From Candidatus Saccharimonadota bacterium (lineage in GTDB: Bacteria > Patescibacteriota > Saccharimonadia > Saccharimonadales > JACOTW01), in NCBI GenBank assembly GCA_016178135.1, contig JACOTW010000007.1:431-64430 (forward strand): 64,000 bases of DNA. Direction: 5' to 3'. The notes below the pieces were generated by a model, which was not told where the DNA came from, did no database searches, and worked only from the letters and a program-made list of their open reading frames with translations. Position 1 is the stretch's first letter; each line of letters starts with the position of its first letter. The position numbers and the translations under genes were made by a program. This document shows, one piece after another, positions 5,586-64,000 of the stretch.

Positions 5586-5600
5586 GAAGGGAAAATATCA

Positions 5601-6745: not shown

Positions 6746-6993
6746 TATAGCTTGTTACGCTATTAAATTAGGATATTCGCCTCTTGCGTTCCAGTCTTAA
6801 GGGGTAGAGTAAATAATCGGGTTAACTACTCTTGAGAGTATCTTCCATCTCGCTAACTCCTCACGGATATTGTTCCAATTCGAATGAACAAGGGCTACCA
6901 AAATAAGAATCCCAGCTTGTCTGGGGTTTTTATTTTGGTACAGAGTCAAGATTCCGGTTCTGCGACAGAGATTTTCTGAAAGAAAATATCGTA

Positions 6994-8209: not shown

Positions 8210-8348
8210 TATAGCCCCCGCAAAACAAATTCCCGACTTTTCGAATCACCCTCTTTGGCCCAAAACCGCCTTTCCTCGTTCAACGTATCTAAGGATATGT
8301 CTCTCTCGGAAAAGTCAGTTTTTGGCTCAAAGATCATTGCTTCAAAAA
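8210..8348 (-). mobile_element. family-A element, copy A2 (core inverted relative to its arm)
   Basis: The TATAGCCCCCGCAAAACAAATTC arm is in the same window orientation as the other copies, but the identical 110-nt core is reverse-complemented. So the arm is attached to the opposite end of the core. Confidence 0.8.
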
Positions 8349-8837
8349 CAAGTACAATTGCAGGTACCGGCAACGGTATCGAAAGCAGAATCAAGCTTTT
8401 CAGCTGTAATTACAATAGTCAACAATGGCGATACGCCACAGACAATCAATTCGATACGAGTCAGTTTAGTAGAAGACCGCAGCCAACCTACAAATGGTAC
8501 CGCGAATTCCACGGAAAGTTTGCAGAAAGAATTATCTGTAATAACTGATCAAGATCATTTTATTTTAAAACCAACCGAAACCAAAATGTTAACAATGACC
8601 ATACCACTTAATCTTAGTAAATTAATGACCGAAGAAATGTCTGATAACCCAGTATCTTCAGTTGCTGCGCATATCCTTGATGGCCTTCAAAAGACCGTAG
8701 ACGCTATGGACAGTTCTAGCTTTGAGCACTACGTTGAAGCCGTTGCTAATGTCGATGGCATTGCCCTGGATCCTTCGGCCCGGTCAAGTATCCAAATCCT
8801 GAAGCCCGGACAAATCGGAGCGAGTTTCCGTTTATAA
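8322..8837 (+). CDS. hypothetical beta-strand-rich protein whose 5' end lies in element A2
   Basis: The ORF starts at a TTG inside A2 (MAQRSLLQK). Deleting 8210-8348 joins an upstream TTG-initiated MSQNSIPAK (8183-8209) in frame to QVQLQVPATV... Confidence 0.5.
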   Translation: MAQRSLLQKQVQLQVPATVSKAESSFSAVITIVNNGDTPQTINSIRVSLVEDRSQPTNGTANSTESLQKELSVITDQDHFILKPTETKMLTMTIPLNLSKLMTEEMSDNPVSSVAAHILDGLQKTVDAMDSSSFEHYVEAVANVDGIALDPSARSSIQILKPGQIGASFRL

Positions 8838-26330: not shown

Positions 26331-26546
26331 ATGGAAGATCATAAGCACCAAAACGAACCGCTGGCCACCTGCCAAGTTTGCAAGGTGCAAGTACCGCGCA
26401 GCCAGTTGCTGAAGCACAATCTTAAGGCCCACCGACTACTTTTCATAGGATTGTCGTTGCTAAGGCTACCTCTCCTTCAGATAAAACAGTTTTCGCTCGA
26501 AATAATTCACTCTGGGAACGGACGATTTTGCGTAAGTCCAGTATAG
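26331..26546 (+). CDS. small zinc-finger-like ORF whose 3' end runs into a family-B half element
   Basis: CQVCKVQVPRSQLLKHNLKAH (C-x2-C...H-x5-H). Residues after about 40 are repeat-encoded. Confidence 0.3.
   Translation: MEDHKHQNEPLATCQVCKVQVPRSQLLKHNLKAHRLLFIGLSLLRLPLLQIKQFSLEIIHSGNGRFCVSPV
26460..26542 (+). mobile_element. family-B element, copy B3 (right half only)
   Basis: GCTACCTCTCCTTCAGATAAAACAGTTTTCGCTCGA.ATAATTCACTCTGGGAACGGACGATTTTGCGTAAGTCCAGT, nearly identical to the right half of B6. Confidence 0.8.
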
Positions 26547-32072: not shown

Positions 32073-32759
32073 TGGTGGGGATGGCAGGATTTGAACCTGC
32101 GACCAATCGGTTATGCGCACCACTACAACTTTCGTTGCCTCTTTCGAGTTTGTAGTCCGGACTGTCTCTTCATCCGCATATACGGATGCCTGCCATACAG
32201 TCTCTACACCTTCCCAGACTTTATAAAACTCTGGGCTTGGCTCGGGATTGCCAAGGCCGAAGCCGTAGGGTTCCCCGAATTTGACAAGATATACTTATCG
32301 GTTACCCGATAAGCAGCCCTTTTACTGTTTGACCTATCTAAGTTAACGTAATGGTTATGAAGAAAGAGTCTAACTGTAAAGTTTGTGGCGATGAACTGAC
32401 CGGAAAGCAAACGCTTTTTTGCTCAATAAAATGCAAAAATGCGTTGCATCAATCCTATCCTTCGCAAAAAAAGCGAGGAATAGAGCGTAAGCTACATTTC
32501 GTCAAAATGCTTGGCGGAAAATGCTCACACTGCGGTTACTCAGCCAATCTTGCCGGTTTGGCATTTCACCATTTAGGCGGCAAGGAATTTCAGCTGGATG
32601 TTCGTTCGCTGTCAAACCGAAAGATTGAACCCATTCTCAAAGAAGTTGCAAAATGCAAGCTTCTCTGTCACAACTGCCATGCAGAAGTGCACAATCCAGG
32701 CTTAGACTTAGCCAAATTGTCAATTGAGCCGACTGCTCTAACCACTGAGCTACATCCCC
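32073..32759 (-). tRNA. tRNA with CAU anticodon (Ile2/Met type) interrupted by a group I intron
   Basis: The 5' exon is 32759-32727 and the 3' exon 32115-32073. Joined, they give a 76-nt cloverleaf GGGGAUG...CGGCU|CAUAACCG...CAUCCCCACCA with a perfect acceptor stem and encoded CCA. Confidence 0.85.
32116..32726 (-). ncRNA. group I intron (IC3-like core) in the anticodon loop
   Basis: The 5' exon ends in U and the intron ends in G. The core strings GUCAAAUUCGGGGAACCCUACGG, GGCAAUCCCGAGCCAAGC and GAAGGUGUAGAGACUGUAUGGCA match the conserved core of bacterial tRNA introns such as the Azoarcus tRNA-Ile intron, as I recall it. Confidence 0.8.
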
Positions 32760-39748: not shown

Positions 39749-41131
39749 ATGAAGCTCAAGAAAGTGGTGGATCGTTCACCACTTTTCAGACCAAAGCGCT
39801 ACACAACAGTAGTCATGGCATTGATAATATTTACCGGAGCAGCCGGTTCATTGTTTGCCGCTATTAATACTAGATCCATAACTCGCGACTCTTTAATGTC
39901 TCGTGCAACTACAGCGGCCGCCGCTCTAAATGTTAAAGACATCCAGAAACTGACTGGTAATGATACGGATATACAGTCACCCACTTATCAAGATTTGAGA
40001 CATCGACTAACACAAATAAGATCCGACAACCCAGACATACGTTTCGTTTATCTACTAGGTCAACGTAACAACAAAATCTACTTCATGGTAGATTCAGAAT
40101 CTGAAGCCAGCAAGCTTCATTCGCCACCCGGTAAAATCTATCCGGGAGTATCTAATAATGTACGAGGCTCTTTCATTATAAGCAAAGCATTTATAGAGGG
40201 TCCGGTCCAAGATAATTACGGTAACTGGCTGTCGGCAATTGTCCCGATAGTCGATAATTCTACTGGCAATACCGTCGCTTTATTAGGCATCGATATACCT
40301 AGCTCTGATTACTACTGGCAGATTTTTGTGTATTCCTTGGTACCTCTGCTTTTGGCAGCCATACCTTTTGCCGGACTACTTAGAGACCGTCAGTTAGAGG
40401 CCAAGGAACGTGAAATTACTCAACTCAAGACCCAGTTTCTGTCTGTTGCTTCACATGAACTCCGATCACCCCTGACAGGAACACTTTGGGCAGTGCAAAC
40501 ACTGCTAAAACCAACGACCAACAATAACCTGACAGGTCCACAGACAGACTTACTTACCGATATTTACAGCAGTACGGCTTCATCGCTAACCACCGTAAAT
40601 GAAATTCTTGATTTTTCAATCTTTGATCGCGACAAAGCTATAAAACTCCAGCATGAGACAGTGGATCTCATACCGGTACTTCAAGAGGCACAAAAAATGC
40701 TTAGACTAAGCGCCAAGGAAGCTGATGTTAAAATTGTCTTTTCCAATAAGTGGCCAACTTTAGTTGAAACCATTGGTGATGTTGCCGCTCTGAAACGAGC
40801 ATTTACGAATATAATTGCAAACGCTATCAAATACAGCCGTGCCAAAACGAAAGTGGAATTAGTGTATCATTTTCAAAATGGTGAACATGTTATAGCAGTT
40901 CGCGATCATGGCATTGGCATTCCAAAATCCGAACAAGGTCGTGTATTGGAAGGTTATTATAGGGCAACGAATGCACTAAAAGTGCAATCACGCGGCACTG
41001 GACTGGGGCTTTGGATGACTCGCCTAATCATTGAGCGCCACGGTGGTAAATTATGGCTAAAATCAAGAGAAGGTGATGGTACTATTGTTTTCGTTGCTTT
41101 ACCAACACTAGATAAACCAACAAGCACTTAA
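39749..41131 (+). CDS. sensor histidine kinase
   Basis: TM segments flank an extracellular domain. H-box SHELRSPL, N-box, and G-boxes DHGIGIP / GTGLGL. Confidence 0.9.
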   Translation: MKLKKVVDRSPLFRPKRYTTVVMALIIFTGAAGSLFAAINTRSITRDSLMSRATTAAAALNVKDIQKLTGNDTDIQSPTYQDLRHRLTQIRSDNPDIRFVYLLGQRNNKIYFMVDSESEASKLHSPPGKIYPGVSNNVRGSFIISKAFIEGPVQDNYGNWLSAIVPIVDNSTGNTVALLGIDIPSSDYYWQIFVYSLVPLLLAAIPFAGLLRDRQLEAKEREITQLKTQFLSVASHELRSPLTGTLWAVQTLLKPTTNNNLTGPQTDLLTDIYSSTASSLTTVNEILDFSIFDRDKAIKLQHETVDLIPVLQEAQKMLRLSAKEADVKIVFSNKWPTLVETIGDVAALKRAFTNIIANAIKYSRAKTKVELVYHFQNGEHVIAVRDHGIGIPKSEQGRVLEGYYRATNALKVQSRGTGLGLWMTRLIIERHGGKLWLKSREGDGTIVFVALPTLDKPTST

Positions 41132-41351
41132 ACTGGACTTACGCAAAACTCCTCCATCCCCAGATCGAATTCTATCGGCTACTCTTCGAGTCTGAGCCTG
41201 AGGGCTCACCTCAGAGTCGAAGACAAACAGTTTTTCTTCTTTCAATGTAGCCAAGAACTAATTAGCTCTAAAGCTACCTCTCCTTCAGATAAAACAGTTT
41301 TCGCTCGAGATAATTCACTCTGGGAACGGACGATTTTGGGTAAGTCCAGTT
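41131..41351 (+). mobile_element. family-B element, copy B6 (long form with a nested hairpin insert)
   Basis: TA|AACTGGACTTACGCAAAA...TTTTGGGTAAGTCCAGTT|TA. The extra internal palindrome TCTTCGAGTCTGAG...CTCAGAGTCGAAGA is absent from other copies. Confidence 0.85.
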
Positions 41352-41358
41352 TAGATTG

Positions 41359-41760: not shown

Positions 41761-41926
41761 TATAGCAATCCCAAAACAAAATGACCATTTTAAGCCACGC
41801 CTCAGCGGCCAAAAACTTCCATTCCTCCCTCAGCGTATCTACGGATATGCTTTAGTCGGAAATGGAAGTTTTTGACTCACTGATCCGTCAACCTAAAAAA
41901 GACATTTTGTTTTGGGATTACTATAG
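41761..41926. mobile_element. 166-bp two-armed relative of family A (element D)
   Basis: 23-bp TIRs TATAGCAATCCCAAAACAAAATG / CATTTTGTTTTGGGATTACTATA flanked by TA. The centre GGCCAAAAACTTCC...CGTATCTACGGATATG...GGAAGTTTTTGAC is homologous to the family-A core. Confidence 0.75.
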
Positions 41927-46228: not shown

Positions 46229-46376
46229 TTGATAAACCTATCGCAAAATCTCCGTTTCCAGGGCGAATCAGCTCGAGCAAAAACAGTTTTATCTGGAAGG
46301 TACGTAAAGAGAAGAAAAACTGTTTGCAGCTGAGTTTAGTCAGTCTGAGGACGAGCGATTTCGCGACAGGTTCAGT
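46229..46376 (-). mobile_element. family-B element, copy B7 (reverse orientation, degenerate left end)
   Basis: ...CTATCGCAAAATCTCCGTTTCCAGGGCGAATCAGCTCGAGCAAAAACAGTTTT...GAGCGATTTCGCGACAGGTTCAGT. Confidence 0.75.
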
Positions 46377-46707: not shown

Positions 46708-47556
46708 CTAACTAATTATTAGTGAGGTTAGAATTGCTTTTATAGGGTCAACAAAATTTTTATCATCCAGCATACTACTCGGAACTCCTACGGATGCTCC
46801 CGCTTCTGAACAGCTACTATCCGAACATTTAACAAAAGCCACACTAATAACCGGCTCTATTGGCAAAATGTCGGCCTTTGGTATGGCCTGTGCCAATTGA
46901 TAACCAGTATCACCTGTTATAAACATAGCATCAATCGTGGTTTCCGAAGTCGTTGAGCCAGCAAGATGCAAAAAACTTAGAAACGTCTGTCCTCGTTGAT
47001 TTTGAGCGGGCTGGGTATAAGTAATCTTTTCTGATGCTCGGGTGGCCAACGCATTGCCCTTGTCAAATTCCGGAAATTTTTGCTGCTTGGTACGAATCAT
47101 AATAATGATTTGCCCGTTAATATCCTGACCGCCTCTTATATTTTTAAATTTGTTGCTGGGCGAACGTAGGATAAGCTGACCATTACCCTCGACATCTGTT
47201 AGAACCCAATCTTCTGGATAATCCATAGACAGACCGAATTGACCGGATATGTAGTGTTTAGATGCGACGGTCGGCTTGGATGATGTTTCTGATTGTCTGA
47301 CACTCGTTGGTTGAGGCTTTGATTCTTGTGGTCCTGTCCGTACAAAAAACCAATATCCAATTACGCCTATAACAACCAAGGTACCAAAAACAAATATCAA
47401 GCCCAACGAACGTTGACTACGCAGTTTTGATCTATACTTCGGGGGAGTCAGATCTGCAAAATCACGCGTTTCTTCCAAAGAATCCCTATAAGCATCTCTA
47501 CCTTCTGGTGTACGCGGACTATCTGGACGCGGTGTGTCGTGGTAATCCATAACCAT
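46708..47556 (-). CDS. membrane-anchored hypothetical protein
   Basis: An N-terminal cytoplasmic tail, a TM segment and an extracellular domain. Confidence 0.5.
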   Translation of the reverse strand: MVMDYHDTPRPDSPRTPEGRDAYRDSLEETRDFADLTPPKYRSKLRSQRSLGLIFVFGTLVVIGVIGYWFFVRTGPQESKPQPTSVRQSETSSKPTVASKHYISGQFGLSMDYPEDWVLTDVEGNGQLILRSPSNKFKNIRGGQDINGQIIIMIRTKQQKFPEFDKGNALATRASEKITYTQPAQNQRGQTFLSFLHLAGSTTSETTIDAMFITGDTGYQLAQAIPKADILPIEPVISVAFVKCSDSSCSEAGASVGVPSSMLDDKNFVDPIKAILTSLIIS

Positions 47557-47561
47557 AATTA

Positions 47562-47724
47562 TACTGGACTTGTCGCAAAATCCCCCGTTCCCAGGGCGAA
47601 TCAGCTCGAGCGAAAACAGTTTTGTCTGAAGGAGAGGTACCCAGGAGGTACATCGAGAGAGGAAAAACTGTTTGTAGCCGAGGTTAGTCGGTCTGGGGAT
47701 GAGGGATTTTGCGTAAGTCCAGTT
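47562..47724 (-). mobile_element. family-B element, copy B8 (full length, reverse orientation)
   Basis: TA|TACTGGACTTGTCGCAAAATC...GGGATTTTGCGTAAGTCCAGTT|TA. It fills the whole gap between two genes. Confidence 0.85.
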
Positions 47725-49247
47725 TAAGAGGCTGTTTTCAGAAGATTCAAAATATCAGGGCCATATTTAGCGGCTTTGGCAGGGCCAATGCCGTTTACGG
47801 CTAACAATTGGCTGTCTGTCTGTGGCTTACTAGTAGCAATGGTGAGCAACAAGCTATCGTGAGCAATTATGTAGGCTGGCATACCCTCATCTCTGGCACG
47901 CTTAGTACGCCAAGCTTTTAATTTGGCTAGCAGATCATCATCAACGGCCTGTACTGGTGGCTCTTCGGTTTCAGTATCGTCTTCGGCCTCTGTAGTAATG
48001 TCAGCCAGTCTGGACGACGATGACTTTAACGCTTGGTCCAGTTCAAATATGGCTGGGTGTAGTCGCAATGCCATAGCATTAATACCGCTCAAATATAGTC
48101 CGTCCAGACTACGCACGCGCGACAAAGCTACATAGCCCATGCCAGGCGTAAACGTCTTACTCAAGTCAATTTCAGCAGCATCTAGACTCATACCTTGGCT
48201 TTTATGAATCGTAATAGCCCATGCCAGGCGTAGAGGCAACTGCATAACTTCCGCCCTAATTTTATTATCTTCTTCAAGTTTCCAGCTATGGGGCACGACT
48301 TTGATCTTGCGGGTACTGTTATATAGACGCACGATTGGTTGTTCGTTATTAAACTCCACAACCCGCCCACGCGTACCATTAACAAAACCAGCCGTCGGAT
48401 TATTGGCCACAAACATTATTTCCGCACCAATTTTTAGTTCCAACAAATCAGCCGCCAAAACACCACGCTGTAACTGTTCAATCTTTAACGCTGAACCTTT
48501 AGTAGTCATTTCGTAAGTATGAATTTCGTTCGGTAATTCCTTAAGACGACGCTGATTAAGGGTGTCAATATCCACATTGTGGGCATACAGGCGAGTCACT
48601 GACTGGTTACTAGACGGTCGCTGGCCTATTCTAGTTTTTAATAACTCTCGATGATATGGCTCCAGTTCATCATGACGCATGGCCTCTAATAACTCCAGTA
48701 AGCCGTCACGCTGTTGACGATGTTGCTCGCTCAAGTAGCAAATTTGTGGATTTAGTTCTCGCCAAGCGGCCGACAAATGCACAAAGTCTGGCGCTTCCAT
48801 GCCACGATTGACTGGAGGCAATTGAAACAAATCACCAACCAATATAACTTGCAAACCTCCAAAAGGTCGTTCGCTTTTACGCAGTAATTTACAAGCTTCA
48901 TTGACCATATCCAATCTGTGCCCATGTAGCATTGAAACTTCATCGATAACTAAAATATCAGTCGAATTATAACGTTTAGCCAGTTTTGCATTCACTGCCA
49001 ATTGCTGACGAGTCCTCGGGTCAATATATTCTTTTATGCCCAGACCAGACCAAGAATGAATAGTCACGCCACCGATATGCGTCGCCGCAATACCCGTACT
49101 GGCGGTAACTGCCACTGTTTTGCCGTGCTTCTTGGCACGCCGAATAAACTCATTCAAAATATAAGTCTTGCCAGCCCCTGGCGGTCCAGTCAAAAACACC
49201 GCCTCTCCCCCCAACATAACATTCAACGCCTGCTTCTGCCTCATCAC
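47724..49247 (-). CDS. PIF1/RecD-like ATP-dependent DNA helicase with a C-terminal HRDC domain
   Basis: Walker A GPPGAGKT and DEVSM. The C-terminal AWRTKRARDEGMPAYIIAHDSLL...NGIGPAKAAKYG is HRDC-like. Confidence 0.85.
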   Translation of the reverse strand: MMRQKQALNVMLGGEAVFLTGPPGAGKTYILNEFIRRAKKHGKTVAVTASTGIAATHIGGVTIHSWSGLGIKEYIDPRTRQQLAVNAKLAKRYNSTDILVIDEVSMLHGHRLDMVNEACKLLRKSERPFGGLQVILVGDLFQLPPVNRGMEAPDFVHLSAAWRELNPQICYLSEQHRQQRDGLLELLEAMRHDELEPYHRELLKTRIGQRPSSNQSVTRLYAHNVDIDTLNQRRLKELPNEIHTYEMTTKGSALKIEQLQRGVLAADLLELKIGAEIMFVANNPTAGFVNGTRGRVVEFNNEQPIVRLYNSTRKIKVVPHSWKLEEDNKIRAEVMQLPLRLAWAITIHKSQGMSLDAAEIDLSKTFTPGMGYVALSRVRSLDGLYLSGINAMALRLHPAIFELDQALKSSSSRLADITTEAEDDTETEEPPVQAVDDDLLAKLKAWRTKRARDEGMPAYIIAHDSLLLTIATSKPQTDSQLLAVNGIGPAKAAKYGPDILNLLKTAS

Positions 49248-49403: not shown

Positions 49404-49544
49404 TATAGCCCCCGCAAAACAAATTCGTGGGTTTTTGAAGCAATGATCTTTGAGCCAAAAACTGACTTTTCCGAGAGAGACATATCCTTAGATACGTTGA
49501 ACGAGGAAAGGCGGTTTTGGGCCAAAGAGGGTGATTCGAAAAGT
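49404..49544 (+). mobile_element. family-A element, copy A3 (intergenic, TA-flanked)
   Basis: TA|TAGCCCCC...CGAAAAGT|TA. The element is 139 nt between the TA dinucleotides. Confidence 0.85.
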
Positions 49545-51980: not shown

Positions 51981-52059
51981 TTTGTTGCCAATTCCAGAGT
52001 AATCCTGCTTGGACCGAAAATTGTTAAGTTTCTGGAGGGGTAACCATAGCTAAACTGAC

Positions 52060-52125
52060 AAGAGATAAACAGTTTGCAACCCTACAGGATTGGTCTGGGG
52101 ACGGGCGATTTTGCGTAAGTCCAGT
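52060..52125 (-). mobile_element. family-B element, copy B9 (half element)
   Basis: ...AAACAGTTTG...GGTCTGGGGACGGGCGATTTTGCGTAAGTCCAGT followed by ATAAT. Confidence 0.7.
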
Positions 52126-52161
52126 ATAATGTATTATGAGTAACAACATGGAGATTTATGC

Positions 52162-53694: not shown

Positions 53695-55395
53695 TTGGAG
53701 TCTTGCATGAATAGTGTCTTTACCGAACTAAGCATTGTTATTGTCTTTAGCGTTTTTGTAAGTATGTTTTTGCGTTTTATTCGACAGCCGATGATCATTG
53801 GTCATATTATCACCGGTATTTTAGTAGGGCCGATTGCTTTTCATGTTATTAAATCTCCTGAAACATTTGAAGTTTTTGGACAATTCGGCATTGCTCTTTT
53901 ATTGCTTATCGTTGGTATCGGATTAAATCCTCGCGTAATCCAGGAAGTTGGTAAAATTGCCGCGTTAATCGCATTCAGTAAAGTTACCCTTACTACTGGT
54001 TTTGGTTTCGCGATATCAAGACTTTTTGGCTATGATCAAGTAGCGTCTCTGTACATTGGTATCGGGCTATCATTTTCAAGTACCATTATTATTTTGAAAT
54101 TATTGACGGATAAGAAAGAGCAGAATCGCCTGTATGGCAAGATCTCAGTTGGCTTTCTTCTAGTAGAAGACCTGATTGCCACACTGGTCTTAATTGGTGT
54201 CGCAGCCACTGGTAGTGGCGGGCTATCACTTAACGATATAACCCAATTAATATTAAAAGCCGCTTTGATTATAGGTGGCGTGATGCTAGTACGCGGTGCC
54301 TTATTGCCTAGACTAAATAATATTATTGCGGGATCGCAAGAATTTTTATTTATTTTTGCGATTGGCTGGAGTTTAGGATTAGCCACGCTATTTGACAAGC
54401 TCGGATTTAGTCTTGAGATTGGCGCTCTACTGGCCGGTATCACACTAGCGTCACAGCCCTACGCCCAAGAGATAGCTTCTAGATTAAAACCCTTGCGCGA
54501 TTTCTTCATCGTACTGTTTTTTATATCGCTCGGATCACATCTGGGAGTAGACCACATAGAATCTATCCTGCCAAAAGCTTTAGTGTTTTCTAGTCTGGTT
54601 TTAGTAGGAAATCCGATAATCGTCATGACCGTCATGGGCTTATCGGGCTATACCAAAAAATCTAGCTTTAAAGTTGGAATTGCTGGTGCACAAGTTAGCG
54701 AATTCTCATTTATATTGTTGCTGTTAGCTAATCAACTTGGTCAGATTAGTACCGAAATAGTTTCTTTGGTAACTATTACCGCTCTAATCACTATCGCGGT
54801 ATCTACCTATGTGATAAATTATTCTGATAAATTATATAGCTTATTCGAACGCTACTTGCACTTGTTTGAAAGACAAAATTTACGTGCAGAACACGAACGC
54901 AGTCAGCACTTTGATTTAGTACTGATTGGCTATCAAAAAGGTGGCCATGAGTTTCTTAAAGTATTTCAGCGGCTACATCATTCTTATACTGTAATAGATT
55001 ATGATCCGACTGTTATAGACACGCTTGAACGTAACCACATAAATTATATGTACGGTGATGTTACCGACCCCGAGCTTTTAAATGAAATCGATTTAGAACG
55101 TGCTAAATTGATTGTCTCAAATCTCTCGGATCTACCGACTAATCAATTTTTGTTGAGGTGGATGGAAACTCATAATCCTCATGTGGTTTTTATATGTTCC
55201 GCTGATACTATTGAACACGCTGCCGAGCTTTATAGTTTAGGAGCAGCTTACGTCATGTTGCCACATTACATCGGTAGCGAAAAAATTGGAGCTTTTATAA
55301 AAAAGAATGGACTTAAAAAAAGCGAGTTCAAAAAGTACCGAGAACGGCATCTGGCATATCTACAAAGCCACTACTCTGCTTCTAGTGAAGTGTAG
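53695..55395 (+). CDS. CPA2 cation:proton antiporter (Kef-type) with a C-terminal TrkA-N-like domain
   Basis: About 12 TM segments and the C-terminal LVLIGYQKGGHEF Rossmann-like domain. The likely start is at 53707. Confidence 0.85.
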   Translation: MESCMNSVFTELSIVIVFSVFVSMFLRFIRQPMIIGHIITGILVGPIAFHVIKSPETFEVFGQFGIALLLLIVGIGLNPRVIQEVGKIAALIAFSKVTLTTGFGFAISRLFGYDQVASLYIGIGLSFSSTIIILKLLTDKKEQNRLYGKISVGFLLVEDLIATLVLIGVAATGSGGLSLNDITQLILKAALIIGGVMLVRGALLPRLNNIIAGSQEFLFIFAIGWSLGLATLFDKLGFSLEIGALLAGITLASQPYAQEIASRLKPLRDFFIVLFFISLGSHLGVDHIESILPKALVFSSLVLVGNPIIVMTVMGLSGYTKKSSFKVGIAGAQVSEFSFILLLLANQLGQISTEIVSLVTITALITIAVSTYVINYSDKLYSLFERYLHLFERQNLRAEHERSQHFDLVLIGYQKGGHEFLKVFQRLHHSYTVIDYDPTVIDTLERNHINYMYGDVTDPELLNEIDLERAKLIVSNLSDLPTNQFLLRWMETHNPHVVFICSADTIEHAAELYSLGAAYVMLPHYIGSEKIGAFIKKNGLKKSEFKKYRERHLAYLQSHYSASSEV

Positions 55396-56109
55396 AGTCC
55401 GTTTCTCTTGATATAATTCAACACAGGGATAGCAAGGCCTTCGGGTTCCTTGCCGTTACGAATAGCTTGCTTGATTTTCCTCGATGAAACTTTTGGTAAA
55501 TTATGAGCAATAATCTGGTAGCGGAATCTTAGACCTCTGGTCTTCTCTAAGTTCTCCAAGGTTCTTTGAATTCTATTTTCGTCAGACTGACGCACACTAA
55601 CTATGAAACTATAGTCCCCGCAAAACAAATTCGTGGGTTTTTGAAGCAATGATCTTTGAGCCAAAAACTGACTTTTCCGAGAGAGACATATCCTTAGATA
55701 CGTTGAACGAGGAAAGGCGGTTTTGGGCCAAAGAGGGTGATTCGAATGACTGCAGCAAGCACTCTACGTGTGGCCAGCCGGCCAGATGGTCCAACATGTC
55801 GTCGCCTATCAGCATGTATAGATCCGCTCCTTTGAAACGTTCGGTCAGTAGAGGCAAAGTATCGGCTGGCGTAAACCGCTGCTGATTTAGCACTATGCTC
55901 CCTAGACTATGTTCGTTTTTTATAGCTAGTCTGACCATTTCCGTACGATGCTCAAAGGCTTTTACGCCTTGTTTGCGGCGCGGTCTTGGCTCAACCAGAA
56001 AAAAGATTTTGTCTAGATTGCATTGTTTTAGTGCAGCATTCGCAAAAGCAATATGACCATCGTGTACCGGATCAAACGTCCCTGAATATATTCCTATTCT
56101 GCTTTTCAT
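55371..56109 (-). pseudogene. nadD: nicotinate-nucleotide adenylyltransferase gene interrupted by a family-A element
   Basis: The N-terminal part contains SGTFDPVHDGH and ends ...WPHVECLLQS (56109-55747). The C-terminal part, FIVSVRQ...VSSRKIKQAIRNG...VLNYIKRNGLY (55607-55371), is in another frame. Removing 139 or 136 nt restores one ORF. Confidence 0.8.
55610..55746 (+). mobile_element. family-A element, copy A4, inside nadD
   Basis: Its core is identical to A1-A3. The right end is 4 nt shorter (…GATTCGAA|TGACTG). Confidence 0.85.
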
Positions 56110-56129
56110 TATGGTTATATTTTATCTCT

Positions 56130-57410
56130 TTAGTTTAGTTTAGATTCGGCTTTGCAGTTTGGGCAGCATATTTTAGATTTGGTCTTGATAGCATCCACGG
56201 TTTTTTTACAAAACGGACAGGTGACACATTTCATAATTTCTTTTTTTTCGTTTTTATCATCTTTTTTGCCAAAAATCATTTTGTGCACGTCGGCAACCGC
56301 TGCCTCCAGAATGTTGCCAATACTACCGCCGCAAGCTAGCAAAACTTCGCCGAGTTGCTGCGCTGAACGGAAAGACTCCGATACTTCCTCTGCCAGAAGG
56401 TTGTACAAAGCTGTTATGTCTTCGACATATCGAACATCGCGAGCGTCTGACCACAATGCTTGCGGCGCAATATTGTTATCAATACGCCGCTTAACGGCCG
56501 CCCATATCCCATAAGTCAGTTTCTTTTTCGCTATTTCTAACTCTTTTCCATTTAGCTCGCTTAAAGCCAACTTTATACTCTCATCCTTGTAATAAGCCAA
56601 TAGATCGGTTTGCTGGTGGAGAAGCTGCCAGGAATTTTGTTTATCTAGAGATGTGCGCCCTGCATATGTCTCGATACCCAGTTTTGCCGATAGTATCTGG
56701 TCATAGATATTACGGAGCTGCTCGGGTAGATCCTCGACTGAGTTTACTACTGGCTGGATGTCTACCATGTCATCAGCCGTTGTGCCCTCAGGAACCTTTG
56801 CTCCGGCTGCATCTAATACTCCACTGAAGCTATCCATGTCGCTCCGATCAACCGTCAGCGAAGTTATCACTACACTTCCGTCTTTCTGCTTAGTTGATAC
56901 TCGAATAAAACCCAGATCCCGGCCAGGCCAAAAACCTTGCTCCATTACAAAACGCCGGCCATGATGTAGATAAGCTTCGTGTGCAAATGGCGAACATACT
57001 ACCAAGCTTTGACCCGGCTCTAAGCCCTCAAGCTTATAGCCTTCTTGCCATTCATAGTATGCCCTTCTTGCCAGGAACCCCGCCCTCGGATCCTTCTCTG
57101 CTTTTGCTTCAGCAGCCCGCAGCCCATTCACGAAAGCCGCTACATAAGGTCGCCACTCTCCTTTGTCAAAATAAGATAAAATCCCATCATGTATTTCTAG
57201 TCTGAAGTCAGTACGCATCGGGCGGTCAATGCCTTCAGCAATCATGCTCAGGTCTTCATCATCTACGCGTTTCAGAGTCTCTGGCAAAATAGCGCCGGTA
57301 CGCCGCAAATCTCCACGCATCATATCAATTGATGCGACTGGGTTATAAAACTCCTCCTTGGTTCTCGCCAGTTCCGGGCGAAACCCTAGCTCAGCAACTG
57401 CCGTAGACAT
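56130..57410 (-). CDS. uncharacterised 426-aa protein with a C-terminal zinc ribbon
   Basis: GAGGGG RBS, and the C-terminal CVTCPFCKK...CCPNCK. GC looks higher than in neighbouring genes. No family recognised. Confidence 0.6.
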   Translation of the reverse strand: MSTAVAELGFRPELARTKEEFYNPVASIDMMRGDLRRTGAILPETLKRVDDEDLSMIAEGIDRPMRTDFRLEIHDGILSYFDKGEWRPYVAAFVNGLRAAEAKAEKDPRAGFLARRAYYEWQEGYKLEGLEPGQSLVVCSPFAHEAYLHHGRRFVMEQGFWPGRDLGFIRVSTKQKDGSVVITSLTVDRSDMDSFSGVLDAAGAKVPEGTTADDMVDIQPVVNSVEDLPEQLRNIYDQILSAKLGIETYAGRTSLDKQNSWQLLHQQTDLLAYYKDESIKLALSELNGKELEIAKKKLTYGIWAAVKRRIDNNIAPQALWSDARDVRYVEDITALYNLLAEEVSESFRSAQQLGEVLLACGGSIGNILEAAVADVHKMIFGKKDDKNEKKEIMKCVTCPFCKKTVDAIKTKSKICCPNCKAESKLN

Positions 57411-57625
57411 AAAACCCCTCGGTTCCTAAGCAGAGCCAAGGGTTTCCAAAAAAACCTTTGCTCCTGCTCGGGAGGCTTAACGCTGTTTCGGACTATCACC
57501 AGAACTTGGGTCAGTGAGCGATGACTCATGCTCCGTATGAGTGCAGGCTCGCTGGTCCAAATGTCTGGAACCGTTGCGGCACAGTGAGGGAATTACACCC
57601 TACTTCCAGCTATATTTTGTTAAAA
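57411..57625 (-). promoter_or_regulatory. cobalamin-riboswitch-like 5' leader
   Basis: The minus-strand RNA reads GGAAGUAGGGUGUAAUUCCCUCACUGUGCCGCAACGGU, then GACCAGCGAGCCUGCA (B12-box-like), then hairpins and a U7 run before the RBS. It matches my recollection of the RF00174 core. Confidence 0.55.
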
Positions 57626-57669
57626 GTACTGGTAGTTTAGCACACACCGACTACGCTATATGTAGTAGT

Positions 57670-58467
57670 TTATACAAAGAAGGTAACCGTAAGAACAATT
57701 ACCGCTAGAGCTATACGGTAACAAGCAAAAACTGCCAAAGTATGTTTAGCCAAATATTTCAACAGAAAGCCAATGGCAAACAACCCACTCAAGAACGCAG
57801 TAATAATACCAACAGCAAACAAGGAAATTTCATTCTGAACTAGGTTTAGGGAATTTTCACTTATCAACACTTTTCCAATTGCCCCGGCGGTAATAGGTAT
57901 GCCCAGCAAAAAAGAAAATCTAGTAGCCGCTACTCTGTCCATGCCCATAAAAAGTCCAGCAGTAATTGTACTACCAGAACGCGATACGCCAGGAATAATT
58001 GCTACTGCTTGAGCCAGACCAATACCGGCCGCTTGCCCTATGGTCACTTTTTCTAATTTAGTCTTGTGCCGATAACGTTTTGCGTACCACTCCGCACCAA
58101 GCATAATAAATGCTACTAGCAACAAATTGATAGCAACTAAATTGACCGAACGAAATGCTGATTCGGCCGCACTTTCCAGTAAAACACCAACAATAACCGC
58201 TGGCACAGTAGCCAATACTAGCAACCAAGCCAAGTGTTTTAAATTATTCTTCCCTAAAATCCCTTGAAAAAGTTGCCAAAGTTCTTTGTAAAAGAAAATA
58301 ATTAACGCCAGTAAAGTACCAAGATGCAAGGCAACGTCAAACGTCAACCCGTTTTCGGTTATGCCTAAAGCCTGATGCATAAGCACCAGATGCCCAGAGC
58401 TAGATACTGGAATAAATTCTGTTAAACCTTGAACCAGGCCTAAAATAATGGCTTGTATTATATTCAT
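57670..58467 (-). CDS. uppP: undecaprenyl-diphosphate phosphatase
   Basis: LGLVQGLTEFIPVSSSGHL and PGVSRSG motifs, with 8 TM segments. Confidence 0.9.
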   Translation of the reverse strand: MNIIQAIILGLVQGLTEFIPVSSSGHLVLMHQALGITENGLTFDVALHLGTLLALIIFFYKELWQLFQGILGKNNLKHLAWLLVLATVPAVIVGVLLESAAESAFRSVNLVAINLLLVAFIMLGAEWYAKRYRHKTKLEKVTIGQAAGIGLAQAVAIIPGVSRSGSTITAGLFMGMDRVAATRFSFLLGIPITAGAIGKVLISENSLNLVQNEISLFAVGIITAFLSGLFAIGFLLKYLAKHTLAVFACYRIALAVIVLTVTFFV

Positions 58468-58928
58468 TGCCGAGAAGTATACACGCGCTTTTTAAGTACT
58501 GAAAGTTTCGGCAAAAATGACTGTACAGCACCATCTAGACCCAAAACTTTTAGTGCGCCTACTAGCACATAAAGTTCATCTAGTTTTTTCTGTTCTAGCT
58601 TCGTGTCCTGGTCAAGATTTCTAAAGAAATATTCTACCCTTTCTATTAACCATTTTTCCTCACCTGGCTTAATTTCGTTACTTTGAAGCTTGGAAACGTC
58701 TGCGATCTTAACAACTTCAAGCGAACGAGCAGAATGATCACGCTTTCTCAAATGACCACGTTTAATCAAACTATTTACGTGCAACGCCACTGTTGCTACG
58801 GAACTATAATTAAGTGCCGTCATAATTTCTCGGTAACTGGGGCTATAGCCATGTTGTCCTATAAACAGCCCTATAAACTCCAGCGTTGCTTTCTGCTTTT
58901 TCGTCGGTCTCATAATTTCATCTTTCAT
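58464..58928 (-). CDS. LexA-type winged-helix DNA-binding protein lacking the S24 peptidase domain
   Basis: The N-terminal TKKQKATLEFIGLFIGQHGYSPSYREIMTALNYSSVATVALHVNSLIKRGHL. There is no Ser/Lys dyad region. Confidence 0.7.
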   Translation of the reverse strand: MKDEIMRPTKKQKATLEFIGLFIGQHGYSPSYREIMTALNYSSVATVALHVNSLIKRGHLRKRDHSARSLEVVKIADVSKLQSNEIKPGEEKWLIERVEYFFRNLDQDTKLEQKKLDELYVLVGALKVLGLDGAVQSFLPKLSVLKKRVYTSRQ

Positions 58929-58931
58929 AAT

Positions 58932-59423
58932 TTATATCCTGTAAGCACTGTGGCCATGTGGTCGATGAGCTACAACTTTCGCTATACTAATTTTTGCTTT
59001 CTTGTACGATTTAAACTTTTCTGGAAAAACCCAATATTTATACCACAAGTAATTCCAGACCGTGAAGAATCCACTCGATACGAACTGACCTATGTACGGC
59101 GTAAGCCCAGCCACTTTTAGGCCGTAAACAATCAGGTAGTCCAGCACAAAATCCATTAGCGTAATAATGATATAACGGTTTGTAACTTCGGTTTCATGTT
59201 TTTTTAGGCCAGGGTTTTTAAATACCCAGAAGCGTTGCAATAAATAATTAGCCGTCCAGCCAAACAAAGTCGAAAGAGACTTCGCCCAGAAAAAACTTCC
59301 GTCCAAAATCTTATCAATAAAGAAAAACATTAAATAACCAGACCAAAAATATGCCCCGCCGCTAACAATATATTCGGTAATTCTAGTTATTTCGATACGT
59401 TGTTTTTTCTTAAATTTGAACAT
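58932..59423 (-). CDS. GtrA-family membrane protein
   Basis: Four TM segments and FVSSGFFTVWNYLWYKYWVF. Confidence 0.75.
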   Translation of the reverse strand: MFKFKKKQRIEITRITEYIVSGGAYFWSGYLMFFFIDKILDGSFFWAKSLSTLFGWTANYLLQRFWVFKNPGLKKHETEVTNRYIIITLMDFVLDYLIVYGLKVAGLTPYIGQFVSSGFFTVWNYLWYKYWVFPEKFKSYKKAKISIAKVVAHRPHGHSAYRI

Positions 59424-60708
59424 GTTTTTGCTTTTTGTTCATCATAACAGATAGAGCTATACCTGTCATCCCCCACCACAAAAGTGCCAGCGTATCATCT
59501 GTCCAGGCATGGGAAAACATATTTACAATTGTCAAACCAACAAATACCGCCAAAAGAATTCTCGCCAAAATGTCTTGTTTCTGTTGCCAGAGTAATCTAG
59601 CTACCAGCAAATTAATCATCATAAATAGCATCATGCCCAGCCAGCCAACTTCCTGCCCAACTTGCAGAAAATAATTTTCAGCAATACGTGGCGTATGGTT
59701 ATTTCTAAATGATGCTGGCCCAGCCGTTCCTGGACCGCGCCCAATTGGCTCCCGCACAACATCTTGGATTCCGTTATTCAGTGCCTCAACCCTATCTTCA
59801 TTAGAACTTTCAACAGAAGTGGATGTCGTGTCGGTATGAAAAACCGTATTCTGCACCACTTGGTTGTTACGAAATATCACTACGCCAGCCAAAGTAACAA
59901 CAATGAAAATAACAGCCGTTAAATACCAATATTGTTTTGCTTTCTTATCACGTAGCGACCAATAACTAAATAATCCAGCAGCTATAAATAAACCCAGCCA
60001 AGCGCTACGAGAATAGGTATAAAACAGTGCCGTACCCGCAACAGCTAACGCTATTATATTTAAGACTTTGTGGCGTTTCATCCACAAAAACATAATAGCC
60101 AAAACTAGATATGCTCCTAGGGGATTAGCACCGCGAAGTGTTGATTGAATACGCCGATAATCAATCTTGTTATCAACAGTTTGATAGGCCGGTATAGTTT
60201 TAGGGCCATAACCAAAATGCTTCAGAAAGTCATACGGTAAAACAAAACGCTGCAAAATACCAAAACTTATTACAATCAAAGCTGGAATCACCACAATTTT
60301 TTGCCAGTGCCGCTTCAAAAATTCGTTTTTTGAGGAGACAACCAAACAGATCATAAAAAAGCCCAAAAATCGCAAGTCGATAAGTAAACCATATATCAAT
60401 GCATTACGGTTTACATTGCCAATTAAAAGTGCCCGCGCACCTAAAATAATATACACAAACGTGTAGAGAAGAATTAGGCGTGGTAACCAACTTGTTTTCA
60501 GCCATTTTTTTATACTGGGTTCACGCCAGGCCAGCCAAATAGCCAATGGCGATAAGGCAACAATAATTAACTCTTTCCAGATACGCCAACTATCTAAATG
60601 CCCAAAATTACTACCCAGCCAAGTGGTAAAAAACGCGTGAAATGGTAAAAGTATTAAGACTATGGCTATAATCCATGAAAGCTTTCGAGTCAGCGCGACG
60701 TCGTTCAT
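59410..60708 (-). CDS. O-antigen ligase/polymerase-like (Wzy_C) membrane protein
   Basis: About 11 TM segments and a YSRSAWLG loop motif. Confidence 0.75.
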   Translation of the reverse strand: MNDVALTRKLSWIIAIVLILLPFHAFFTTWLGSNFGHLDSWRIWKELIIVALSPLAIWLAWREPSIKKWLKTSWLPRLILLYTFVYIILGARALLIGNVNRNALIYGLLIDLRFLGFFMICLVVSSKNEFLKRHWQKIVVIPALIVISFGILQRFVLPYDFLKHFGYGPKTIPAYQTVDNKIDYRRIQSTLRGANPLGAYLVLAIMFLWMKRHKVLNIIALAVAGTALFYTYSRSAWLGLFIAAGLFSYWSLRDKKAKQYWYLTAVIFIVVTLAGVVIFRNNQVVQNTVFHTDTTSTSVESSNEDRVEALNNGIQDVVREPIGRGPGTAGPASFRNNHTPRIAENYFLQVGQEVGWLGMMLFMMINLLVARLLWQQKQDILARILLAVFVGLTIVNMFSHAWTDDTLALLWWGMTGIALSVMMNKKQKHVQI

Positions 60709-60729
60709 AATGTTACAATTTAAACACAG

Positions 60730-62175
60730 ATGAAAAACAATGCCTCATTACTCTATAGCTGTTTTTTAGTTGCAGGGGATTTCCTAGCGCTAGTGCTGGC
60801 TTTTGTAGGTGCTTTTATTTTGCGAGTAACTCTTGGTTTTGGTTTAGGCGAACAGGCCGTAGCTAATCCGGTTCACGCTAGAACTTATTTGGGTATTTTC
60901 CTGATTCTTACACCATTTTGGATAATAATCTTTGCCCTACTGGGTCTTTACGGTAGCTCCATTTACGAAAAACGCTTCTCTGAAGCCGGACGGCTACTGA
61001 TAGGTTCTTTTGCTGGACTTTTATTTGTACTTAGCTATGCCTACATAATAAACGAACCAATTTTTCCAGCCAAACTTGTGCCCGTTTATGGATTTATTCT
61101 AGCTTTCTTACTCTTACTAATTTTTCGTAATCTAGCACGATGGACGAGGAGCGTCCTGTTTACTTACAATATTGGTATTACTCATCTACTGATTGTTGGG
61201 GACACTCGGATTACGGCCGAACTAATTGAGACTCTGCACAATAGTCGGCTTTCTGGGTACAAGATCGTAGGAGTTGTGGGTCATAATAATATCCCCGACA
61301 ATACTAGTCTGGCAATATTTAATAATTTCGCCGAGGCAATCGACAAGATTGGGCCAGAAGACATCCACTCCATTGTCCAGACAGAACTGTACTCCAACAG
61401 CGACAAAAACAATGAGATTCTGACTTTTTCGCAGGAGCATCACATAGCTTATCGTTTTGTGCCAGGTAACACCGAATTGTTTGTGGGGAACCTAGAGGTG
61501 GAACTTTTCCGCCAATCGGTTCCAGTAGTTGCTGTTCATCAAACAGCGTTAATTGGTTGGGGTAGGATTGTAAAAAGAGTCTTCGACATGGTTGTAGGGT
61601 GCTTATTGCTTATAGTTGCTTCTCCACTCTTGGCAATAATCTCACTTTTACAATTATTAAACGGTGGTGACGTATTTTTCAGGCAAACCAGGCTTACTAG
61701 GTTCAACCACAAATTTAAGGTCTATAAGTTCCGGACCGTACGCCCCGCCTACAACGGCCTGTCCCCCGAAGAAGCATTTAAAAAAATGGGCAAGCCGGAA
61801 CTTATTAAAAAATACCGTGACTCTGGCGACCAGCTCATGAATGACCCGCGTATTGGTAAGTTCGGCCGTTTTCTTAGAGCCACTAGTCTAGATGAGCTTC
61901 CTCAATTGTTTAACGTATTAAAAGGAGATTTAAGCCTGGTTGGGCCACGCGCGCTTGTGCCCGAAGAACTCAGTACGTACGAAAAACGGCACGCAATCCT
62001 AAGTGTTAAATCTGGGCTAACTGGTTTGGCGGTAGTTTCTGGTAGGCGCAATATTAGTTTTGAAGAACGCCGCAAGCTAGACATGTACTACGTTCAAAAC
62101 TGGAGCTTTTGGTTAGATATAGTCATTCTACTTAAAACAATTCGGGTAGTACTAACCGGCTCCGGAGCCAAGTGA
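60730..62175 (+). CDS. polyprenyl-phosphate sugar phosphotransferase (WbaP/Bac_transf family)
   Basis: An N-terminal TM block and the C-terminal RATSLDELPQLFNVLKGDLSLVGPR. Confidence 0.9.
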   Translation: MKNNASLLYSCFLVAGDFLALVLAFVGAFILRVTLGFGLGEQAVANPVHARTYLGIFLILTPFWIIIFALLGLYGSSIYEKRFSEAGRLLIGSFAGLLFVLSYAYIINEPIFPAKLVPVYGFILAFLLLLIFRNLARWTRSVLFTYNIGITHLLIVGDTRITAELIETLHNSRLSGYKIVGVVGHNNIPDNTSLAIFNNFAEAIDKIGPEDIHSIVQTELYSNSDKNNEILTFSQEHHIAYRFVPGNTELFVGNLEVELFRQSVPVVAVHQTALIGWGRIVKRVFDMVVGCLLLIVASPLLAIISLLQLLNGGDVFFRQTRLTRFNHKFKVYKFRTVRPAYNGLSPEEAFKKMGKPELIKKYRDSGDQLMNDPRIGKFGRFLRATSLDELPQLFNVLKGDLSLVGPRALVPEELSTYEKRHAILSVKSGLTGLAVVSGRRNISFEERRKLDMYYVQNWSFWLDIVILLKTIRVVLTGSGAK

Positions 62176-62571: not shown

Positions 62572-63746
62572 AGAAGCCACCTTCCACCCCCCACCTTCCA
62601 CCTTCCAAATCGCCACGCGTGGCGATTGTGCATGATTGGTTATATGGTGGCGGAGCTGAGAAAGTTGTTTTGGAACTCCATAAAATGTTTCCGAAAGCAC
62701 CGATTTACACCTCGTATTGCACTGATGAGTGGCGGCAAAAACTGGATAACAAGGTTGTGACTGGCTATTTACAATACTGGCCATTCAGTAAATTACGAAA
62801 ATTTTTACCGATTCTGCGCCAACGCTGGTTCAGCGGATTAAATCTTGAGGGTTTTGATTTAGTTATCAGCAGCTCGGGCAATGGCGAAGCCAAATTTGTC
62901 CTATCAAAAATGCCATCTTCCAAACCAGTGCATATCTGTTACTGTCATACACCTCCGCACTTCTTGTGGAACAAATATGATCAATATCTAGAAAACCCTG
63001 GATTTCGTCCTAAATGGTTAGCAAGACTGGGTCTAAAATTACTAGTAAAACCACTTAGAAAACGTGACTACAACATAGCACAAAGAGTTGATTTTTTTAT
63101 TGCTAACTCAACCCATATTCAATCATATATAAAGCAGTATTATGGCCGAGATTCAGTGGTTATCCATCCGCCTGTTGATACTGATAGGTTTTCTAAAATC
63201 AAAGGGACCCAGAGGCAGGGTTTTATAACTGTTGGACGCCAAAATCCTTATAAAAGAACCGACATTTTGATTACTGCTTGCAACAAGCTCAAATTGCCTT
63301 TAACCGTAATTGGCAAAGGCCCCGAACATAAAGACCTAGTTAAGCTGGCTGGCCCTACAATTATGTTTGATACAAATGCCGATGACGACGCTATCGTCGA
63401 GTATATGGCTTCAACCGAGGCGTTTTTATTTGCCGCTGAAGAAGATTTTGGCATTACACCTGTTGAAGCCATGGCAGCCGGCACGCCGGTTATTGCCTAT
63501 AAGGCAGGAGGCGCCTTAGACTATGTTATAGAAGGCAAAACTGGATTATTTTTTGAAGAACAAACATCTGAAAGTTTAATGAAAGTCTTGCAAGATTTTA
63601 ATCCCAAAAAAATTGACGGCATAGAAATTAGCAAACATTCCGAGCTCTTTGCCGAAAAGCAATTCCATAAAAAGTTTAATAAGTTACTAACCGAAAATGT
63701 TCTATACTGGACTTACGCAAAGCTCCCTCATCCCCAGACCGAATAA
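62568..63746 (+). CDS. glycosyltransferase family 4 (GT-B, group 1)
   Basis: The C-terminal EDFGITPVEAMAAGTPVIA motif. The last ~13 codons and the stop are encoded by B10. Confidence 0.85.
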   Translation: MKKPPSTPHLPPSKSPRVAIVHDWLYGGGAEKVVLELHKMFPKAPIYTSYCTDEWRQKLDNKVVTGYLQYWPFSKLRKFLPILRQRWFSGLNLEGFDLVISSSGNGEAKFVLSKMPSSKPVHICYCHTPPHFLWNKYDQYLENPGFRPKWLARLGLKLLVKPLRKRDYNIAQRVDFFIANSTHIQSYIKQYYGRDSVVIHPPVDTDRFSKIKGTQRQGFITVGRQNPYKRTDILITACNKLKLPLTVIGKGPEHKDLVKLAGPTIMFDTNADDDAIVEYMASTEAFLFAAEEDFGITPVEAMAAGTPVIAYKAGGALDYVIEGKTGLFFEEQTSESLMKVLQDFNPKKIDGIEISKHSELFAEKQFHKKFNKLLTENVLYWTYAKLPHPQTE

Positions 63747-63868
63747 CCTCGGCTACAAACAGTTTTTCCTCTCTCGATGTACCTCCCTGGTACCTCTCCT
63801 TCAGACAAAACTGTTTTCGCTCGAGCTGATTCGCCCTGGGAACGAGGGATTTTGCGACAGGCCCAGTA
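63705..63868 (+). mobile_element. family-B element, copy B10 (full length; used here as the forward reference)
   Basis: TACTGGACTTACGCAAAGCTCCCTCATCCCCAGACCGAAT...CTGGGAACGAGGGATTTTGCGACAGGCCCAGTA. It is essentially the reverse complement of B8. Confidence 0.85.
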
Positions 63869-64000
63869 AAGCTATCCCCTATTTAGTCAACTCAAAATAT
63901 GTAATTGTAATTGGTAGACCAGGTAAGATCTTCAAATTTACCTTGCCCAGGTATTTACCATCACTTGTTTGGACTAATTCATCCACGACATAGCGTAACC

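Follow-up and report, generated by a model that had tools for sequence, protein, structure and literature searches.

The question raised by this locus is whether nadD, the gene of a normally essential enzyme, is broken in the organism or only in its assembly. It was addressed in a stretch of 64,000 nucleotides from Candidatus Saccharimonadota bacterium (GenBank assembly GCA_016178135.1, contig JACOTW010000007.1, positions 431 to 64,430 of the forward strand), referred to below as the window, in which the nadD reading frame enters a palindromic repeat, stops there and resumes in a different frame on the other side. The explanation that best accounts for the data as a whole, and in which we place good confidence, is that a miniature inverted-repeat transposable element (MITE) of the IS630 type has inserted into nadD completely and in frame, and that the frame break is an artefact of assembly. 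The MITE landed at the TA of the codon pair GTT AGT in nadD of a groundwater Candidatus Saccharibacteria population, with duplication of the TA. A complete unit of 167 nt replaces the TA and adds 165 nt, that is 55 codons without a stop, so that the real allele would be one 256-codon frame encoding NadD with a 55-residue insert (IASAKQIPDFSNHPLWPKTAFPRSTYLRICLSRKSQFLAQRSLLQKPTNLFCGDY). The loss of 32 nt when contigs were joined would then produce the apparent +1 shift in the window.

nadD and its insertion site

As assembled, the window holds no single uninterrupted nadD frame; such a frame is present in the allele reconstructed below (256 aa) and in an allele with an empty site (201 aa). The 5' part of the gene, codons 1-121 (MKSRIGIYSGTFDPVHDGH ... 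HVECLLQS), lies upstream of the insertion at 55747-56109 on the minus strand. It belongs to an open reading frame (ORF) of 166 aa, 55609-56109(-), in which the 121 NadD codons are followed by 45 codons of the element and a TAG stop at 55611-55609. The 3' part ((S)FIVSVRQ ... VSSRKIKQAIRNG ... NGLYTSLEAE, stop) lies at 55371-55609 on the same strand and is carried by a 97-aa ORF, 55371-55664(-), that starts at a TTG within the element (55662-55664, minus strand) and bears the NadD C-terminus. Its frame in the window is +1 relative to that of the N-terminal part, and the two are in frame once the 32 nt are restored. A sequence-only reading of the window had described the same arrangement of 121 NadD codons, the element, a TAG stop and the remainder in another frame, and the ORF list confirms it.

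The identity of the gene is clear from several lines of evidence. A profile search placed PF01467 at residues 7-121 of the N-terminal piece (E = 4e-13) and at residues 7-168 of the joined protein (E = 1.8e-14). The NadD family signature, consisting of an N-terminal (H/T)xGH motif, a C-terminal ISSTxxR-type motif and the nucleotidyltransferase fold, is present, with HDGH at residues 16-19 and VSSRKIK in the C-terminal part. Full-length orthologues of about 200 aa are 70-81% identical, and one of them (P0003) matches the Bacillus subtilis NadD structure 1KAM (E = 1e-23). The N-terminal ORF has an identical counterpart in NCBI MBI1857228.1, a protein of a Candidatus Saccharibacteria metagenome-assembled genome (MAG), and its NadD part is 100% identical to the N-terminus of P0007, the nadD product of a sister MAG, GCA_016196105.1 (JACPYE, site Pr1), in which several kb around nadD match the window without a difference. 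The enzyme occurs in hundreds of Saccharibacteria and is strongly conserved among them. A second NadD-like ORF was not found by hidden Markov model search of about 130 kb of the species (the window and loci L001, L095, L099, L101 and L105), and a scan of JGI metagenomes with NadD returned no further nadD alleles, the top match being 54% identical. Nothing relevant on nadD in Saccharibacteria was found in the literature.

The target of the insertion is the TA of GTT AGT (Val122-Ser123), a position at which orthologues read GTC AGC and GTT AAT. An ancestral sequence CAG TCA GTT AGT TTC (QSVSF), with the TA of GTTAGT as target, was predicted from the orthologues before an empty site was found. 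The empty site was then observed in a conspecific genome, GCA_040960765.1 (L099, on a 654-kb contig), and in a contig of the Logan collection (L100), both retrieved via an identical neighbouring protein. There an uninterrupted 201-aa nadD reads CAGTCAGTTAGTTTC at the site, matching the predicted CAGTCAGTTAGTTTCATAG exactly (allele ...GCAGTCAGTTAGTTTCATAG..., protein ...LLQSVSFIVSV...). The empty site is accordingly written CAGTCAGT-TA-GTTTC and the occupied site CAGTCAGT-TA-(TAGCC...GGCTA)-TA-GTTTC, the latter being composed of a left junction from L001 and L106 and a right junction from the window. The 201-aa NadD of the conspecific differs from the prior reconstruction by one residue, C117Y. 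At the nucleotide level the N-terminal part of nadD in the window shows 5 differences from the intact allele (L099 7607-7969) and the C-terminal part shows 1.

Since a conspecific strain carries the empty site together with an intact 201-aa NadD, the insertion is recent and polymorphic within the species. The recent age claimed in the sequence-only reading therefore holds, and a comparison with related nadD genes, which had been suggested there, yielded both uninterrupted orthologues and the conspecific empty site GTTAGT. Its claim that deletion of 139 or 136 nt precisely restores the gene stands for the frame, which is restored only through a choice of boundaries made to that end, and fails for the true sequence, as these deletions give QSF or QSSF in place of QSVSF, the real site having one to two codons more.

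Decay of nadD was also considered, with SSRKIK as a degenerate motif and thus as evidence for a pseudogene, and was rejected. The intact conspecific allele has the same residues, both there and at HDGH, and the coding parts in the window deviate at 1 of the columns that are at least 85% conserved, which is no more than is seen in orthologues.

The empty-site strain (L099/L100) is 98.8% identical to the window upstream of nadD (72 mismatches in 5.8 kb; window 55747-61575) and 99.87% downstream of it, where 8 mismatches fall in 6.1 kb. Such a difference between the two sides of the insertion site points to recombination among strains.

The inserted element and the sequence missing from it

The element is identified as a non-autonomous transposon of the IS630/Tc1-mariner type, that is a MITE, because its 23-nt ends match the ends of IS630-family insertion sequences (ISs) and because the TA target is duplicated. 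Duplication of TA is a property of IS630/Tc1-mariner elements (PMC2170065). In the window the repeat at nadD spans 55610-55746 (137 nt). By alignment of the copies, the MITE as assembled (55612-55746, minus strand) corresponds to element positions of about 31-165 out of 167 and comprises an imperfect palindromic core and the terminal inverted repeat of the B-end. This terminal repeat, TATAGTCCCCGCAAAACAAATTC, lies at 55610-55632 when read on the plus strand, its outer TA (55610-55611) being the right-hand copy of the duplicated target. A complete unit measures 167 nt from TATAG to CTATA, made up of a 163-nt element plus the duplicated TA with both copies counted, for a net gain of 165 nt. The size of 136-139 nt previously given for the element is thus too small. 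Such a complete copy occupies the nadD position in the sister MAG (L001 10366-10532, 167 nt, TATAGCCTCCGCAAAACAAATTC to GAATTTGTTTTGCGGGGGCTATA); additional complete copies were found in L001, L095 and L099, and a different Saccharibacteria MAG (L008) has one as well.

The window contains three further copies, one at 1667-1805, one at 8210-8349 (inverted) and one at 49404-49544. Their identity is 97-100%, where no match would be expected by chance; three copies identical in the core had been noted from the sequence alone. The 23-nt terminal repeat occurs 4 times against an expectation of 0. The same 23-mer, TATAGYCCCCGCAAAACAAATTC, stands at either end of a 1120-bp IS (L012 1443-2562) that encodes HTH_29/HTH_23 (E = 2e-8), HTH_33 and DDE_3 (E = 7e-19) domains, which is the IS630/Tc1-mariner architecture, and IS starts of the same kind were seen in L007 and L009. 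A scan with the terminal repeat of GTDB representative genomes, a set that does not include the species of the window, returned nine loci, distributed over Saccharibacteria, Kuenenbacteria, Minisyncoccia and other Patescibacteria, and led to the parent IS family. No IS630 transposase gene or autonomous copy was found in the window or the conspecific loci, about 130 kb of the species.

Folding of the complete element yields -65.1 kcal/mol (z = -9.2), with a perfect outer stem of 23 bp, against -39.3 kcal/mol (z = -2.9) for the truncated copy in the window. The other MITE copies examined are intergenic. Group I and group II introns, an attC-like site and a palindromic element of the IS200/IS605 type were ruled out by the size of the element, its IS630 terminal repeats and the TA duplication. 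Searching the window against Rfam returned a tRNA and an unrelated group I intron and no match for the element. The IS630-family ISs with the same 23-nt repeat reside in MAGs of Kuenenbacteria and other Patescibacteria (L012 1443-2562, L007 5115-6248 and L009). The terminal repeat encodes the C-terminus of their transposase (...PEFVLR, stop), and in L012 the transposase is spread over two ORFs, through a frameshift or as a pseudogene.

Relative to L001 and to a Logan contig (L106), 32 nt are absent from the window at a suspect assembly junction, 55746/55747. The absent bases, GTTATAGCCTCCGCAAAACAAATTCCCGACTT, are two of nadD (GT), the left TA and, from the terminal repeat of the A-end, 28 nt, and their absence, with nothing else, accounts for the frame break. 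The junction in the window reads GCAGTCA followed by TTCGAATCACC, and the junction with a complete end reads GCAGTCAGTTATAGCC. L106 (SRR12113417) is 100.000% identical to window 55747-60410, then goes on with the absent bases and ends in ...GCAGTCA GT TATAGCCTCCGCAAAACAAATTCCCGACTTTTCGAATC, that is with a complete end joined to nadD.

In fact, all four copies in the window, read against independent assemblies, are without one terminal repeat and a variable length of flank. Copy c1 (1667-1805, plus strand) keeps 139 nt and has lost 63 nt at 1805/1806, made up of 28 nt of terminal repeat and 35 nt of flank, which are present in L095, L096, L097 and L098, with L096 and L097 starting with the terminal repeat and flank in question. 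Copy c2 (8210-8349, plus strand, in the opposite orientation) keeps 140 nt and lacks 172 nt at 8349/8350 that L095 has; this gap takes the ATG and the first 17 codons of ORF 8322-8837, of which the true start is MGFFSKLKQNFNHGGVKVQLQ... in L095. Copy c3 (49404-49544, plus strand) keeps 141 nt and lacks 119 nt at 49544/49545, and the missing flank is found in L099, L100 and L102. L102 starts with the B-end joined to the C-terminal part of nadD and carries the longer c3 flank at its far end. The Logan contigs, each an independent assembly of a single run at k = 31, match the window with 100.000% identity over 4.7-6.2 kb, as far as the suspect junctions, and then go on with the missing sequence. 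At c3 the element-side boundary is the same in both MAGs, which lie 20 nt apart on the flank side, where the sister MAG is shorter.

In the sister MAG the C-terminal part of nadD lies at the end of one contig (JACPYE010000002.1, L094 1-137), which starts exactly at TTCGAATC, the first base of the window copy and base 31 of the element, and on which the same 97-aa ORF was called. The N-terminal part with the complete MITE lies on another contig, JACPYE010000004.1 (L001), and runs into an unrelated Aminotran_4/ddl/murF flank at 10533-10600. The B-end in the L001 copy differs by one base (G, not A) from that of the copy beside the C-terminal part. Only about 13 of the 141-mers across the L001 copy lack a copy-specific base, and for this reason a wrong exit from the repeat is plausible. 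The L001 join is probably chimeric at the repeat; otherwise two copies would truly have recombined.

The supplements of He et al. 2021 include the sister MAG, and the methods of that study give MEGAHIT with default parameters followed by scaffolding with IDBA-UD (PMC7906910). The MAG of the window appears to come from the same project. The kept lengths of 137 nt (nadD) and 139, 140 and 141 nt (c1, c2 and c3) are close to k-1 = 140 for MEGAHIT at k = 141, the final k-mer of its defaults. As the kept lengths are about k-1, the loss of flank is variable and independent assemblies show complete ends, the gaps are read as scaffolding artefacts. It is very likely that the copy in nadD is complete in the organism and that the 32-nt gap arose when the scaffolder joined MEGAHIT contigs reaching about k-1 into the repeat. 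The pattern resembles known scaffold-join errors in short-read metagenomes in the loss of sequence where a repeat longer than k meets its flank, in the kept length of about k-1, in the variable flank loss and in contig ends of a sister assembly at the same base. The remark in the sequence-only reading that an assembly artefact might be involved therefore applies to the 32-nt gap, which independent assemblies fill, and not to the insertion as such.

The fusion allele and rival explanations

Joining ...GCAGTCAGT, the 167-nt element and GTTTCATAG... gives a single ORF of 256 codons. The complete element, and only the complete copy, is free of stops in 3 of its 6 frames (+0, +1 and -0), which include the frame used in nadD. 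Most likely, the product of the real allele is NadD carrying 55 residues that the element encodes. In the AlphaFold model of orthologue P0003 (mean predicted local distance difference test score 87.8) the site is residue 120, which alone links a helix (113-119) to a strand (121-125). The insert would therefore sit at the N-terminal end of a Rossmann strand; in such folds this end generally faces away from the nucleotide site, and the insert would be on the side opposite to nucleotide binding. We put the prospect that the fusion NadD is active at about even, leaning slightly in its favour because the insertion allele was assembled from several samples of that population and because NadD is highly conserved in Saccharibacteria.

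Several observations weigh against an artefactual break in a working fusion gene. If the L001 join were real, nadD would be truly broken in that strain. The step by which the scaffolder drops the overhang of the second contig together with 4-145 nt of flank is one that we infer, and the link of the window's MAG to the sequencing project rests on the accession series and on 100% identity to the Logan contigs. The outer stem of the complete element would be present in the mRNA as 23 bp of perfect pairing. In Correia elements such stems are reported to be RNase III targets, and by analogy the hairpin could be cleaved by RNase III and expression lowered. In a phmmer search of 1.84 billion representative proteins the element peptide was found in P0007 only, with no sign of a MITE that is habitually inside genes; the insertion in nadD appears to be a single event, with no habit of entering genes. 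The absence of decay in the coding parts of nadD carries little weight, as the insertion is too young.

The strongest rival leaves the complete in-frame insertion standing and supposes that enzyme function is lost even so, because the protein misfolds or the mRNA hairpin is cleaved, so that the interrupted nadD would be a young pseudogene. We regard this as a real possibility, somewhat short of probable. An insert of 55 residues at a one-residue linker between helix and strand, a very stable mRNA hairpin (-65 kcal/mol, 23-bp perfect stem), the absence of other in-frame MITE copies from public proteins and the youth of the insertion, by which the missing decay weighs little given an empty-site allele within the species, all speak for it. 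They are countered by the assembly of the insertion allele in at least 2 MAGs and several runs of the Pr1 population, by the strong conservation of NadD over hundreds of Saccharibacteria, by the position of the site on the face of the Rossmann fold that, judging from the model, would turn away from the active site, and by insertions of similar size in Rickettsia that are reported to be compatible with the fold of their host proteins (PMC10969869). Of the four alternatives in the sequence-only reading, a fresh inactivating insertion in a strain or subpopulation comes closest, and it is upheld as to freshness and to its restriction to part of the species, given the empty site in the conspecific and in a Logan contig, and not as to inactivation, the complete insertion of 165 nt being in frame and free of stops.

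It is unlikely that the 32-nt deletion is real, in which case the strain would have lost one terminal repeat and 4 nt of nadD after an in-frame insertion, leaving a frameshifted pseudogene and a supply of NAD or nicotinic acid adenine dinucleotide (NaAD) from the host or from another enzyme. The literal sequence of the window shows such a deletion, palindromes are prone to deletion, Saccharibacteria are reduced and host-dependent epibionts, and nadD of the sister MAG is also disrupted beyond the insertion. The same type of gap is found at all four window copies with 137-141 nt kept, however, one of the gaps removes the start of another gene, assemblies 100% identical to the window carry complete ends and flanks, two MAGs from the same pipeline end 20 nt apart at c3, and the coding parts of nadD show no decay. 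Were the deletion real, four separate events would be needed, each with an endpoint that depends on k, and the read-derived contigs show none of them. Recurrent deletions anchored at the hairpin, by a nuclease or by slippage at the base of the inner stem, were rejected on the same grounds of kept lengths near k-1 and complete ends in independent assemblies. Far less probable still is a real break that the cell overcomes, by a +1 shift in a 54-nt overlap, by bypass from the TTC at 55746-55744 to the TTC at 55607-55605, or as separate pieces of 166 and 97 aa. The two frames do overlap without a stop at 55611-55664, identical TTC codons stand on either side of the 136-nt gap, a TTG opens the second ORF and the hairpin is strong. 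Yet the codon after the putative take-off site is GAA, neither a stop nor rare, nothing like the slippery site or stimulatory context of prfB was recognised, the gap is far over the 50 nt of T4 gene 60, the HxGH and SSxxxK/R motifs would fall on separate polypeptides, and the sister assembly has another element length and frame at the site, leaving no conserved recoding signal. Two polypeptides, a +1 frameshift and removal or bypass had all been offered in the sequence-only reading; no specific signal was found for any of them, and they have nothing to explain because the frame break is most likely a scaffolding artefact. That the truncated copy is real in part of the population, with NadD made by a 136-nt hop or a +1 shift in the element, is scarcely credible; were it true, the hop would exceed every known translational bypass in length and be the first one tied to a MITE.

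Parallels, neighbouring features and meaning

The preferred explanation, a complete in-frame MITE insertion with an artefactual break, places the element beside known IS630/Tc1-mariner MITEs. It is like them in its size within 100-170 nt, in terminal repeats of about 23-26 nt that are identical to those of a full-length IS630-family IS, in the TA duplication, in its many near-identical copies, in the lack of transposase coding and in the long hairpin that it forms when transcribed. RUP of Streptococcus pneumoniae is a MITE derived from IS630/Tc1-mariner, and the Correia elements of Neisseria also duplicate TA. The present case differs from known MITEs in its host, a member of the Patescibacteria or Candidate Phyla Radiation (CPR), and in the lack of an autonomous copy in about 130 kb of the species. 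A literature search for MITEs in Saccharibacteria found no published description of MITEs for the Patescibacteria.

By analogy, the insert in nadD resembles the Rickettsia palindromic elements (RPEs), in which a palindromic repeat of about 100-170 nt lies in a coding gene, keeps the frame and adds a peptide to an otherwise normal enzyme (PMC10969869), compared with 165 nt and 55 codons here. The length that the complete copy adds is likewise divisible by three, and the host frame runs through it without a stop. RPEs occupy dozens of host genes and have no identified transposase partner; here the terminal repeats are of the IS630 type, the TA is duplicated, the other copies examined are intergenic and no recurrence in many unrelated genes is seen. 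Programmed bypass, as in T4 gene 60 and the byps of Magnusiomyces mitochondria, shares with the window a formal likeness only, namely a hairpin insert in coding sequence between TTC codons. Known gaps of 27-55 nt compare with 136 nt here, where there is also no stop after the take-off site and no known nascent-peptide signal.

Small palindromic repeats are unusually many in this genome for its size of about 1 Mb. A second, commoner MITE-like family with ends TATACTGGACTTACGCAAA has at least 9 termini in the 64 kb (18912-19072, 26460-26546, 41129-41354, 46245-46365, 47555-47736, 52048-52128, 63703-63875 and others), and another TA-flanked palindrome lies at 41761-41925. A group I intron at 32073-32341 on the minus strand (Rfam RF00028, 72.6 bits) adjoins a tRNA-like arm complementary to part of tRNA-Met, and the region probably represents a tRNA gene with an intron, missed by ARAGORN. 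A 4.3-kb island at about 2549-6893, flanked by GCTACCAA, adjoins tRNA-Met (2464-2538) and codes for a large serine recombinase (2495-4087, minus strand) and a NYN-domain protein. As the island is present in the Logan contigs L096 and L097 and absent from the conspecific L095 and L098, it is taken to be a strain-specific integrative element.

The outcome of more practical use concerns assemblies of this type: all four MITE copies in a public MAG contig hide deletions of 32-172 nt without Ns, and two gene disruptions, in nadD and at the start of ORF 8322-8837, would be false. Calls of pseudogenes or split genes in comparable assemblies call for caution near repeats slightly longer than k. The insertion itself is a further instance of two known kinds, the MITE and the in-frame palindromic insertion, from a phylum for which no MITE literature was found, and its novelty is modest. 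It would provide a clean and datable case of a transposon remnant in a normally essential gene of an ultra-small symbiotic bacterium, with the frame unbroken. Both the empty and the occupied allele are in public data, which makes for a natural experiment on the tolerance of a core enzyme for a foreign peptide and on MITE activity in Patescibacteria. An active NadD from the complete 55-codon insertion, which we consider about as likely as not, would constitute an RPE-like example within the Candidate Phyla Radiation.

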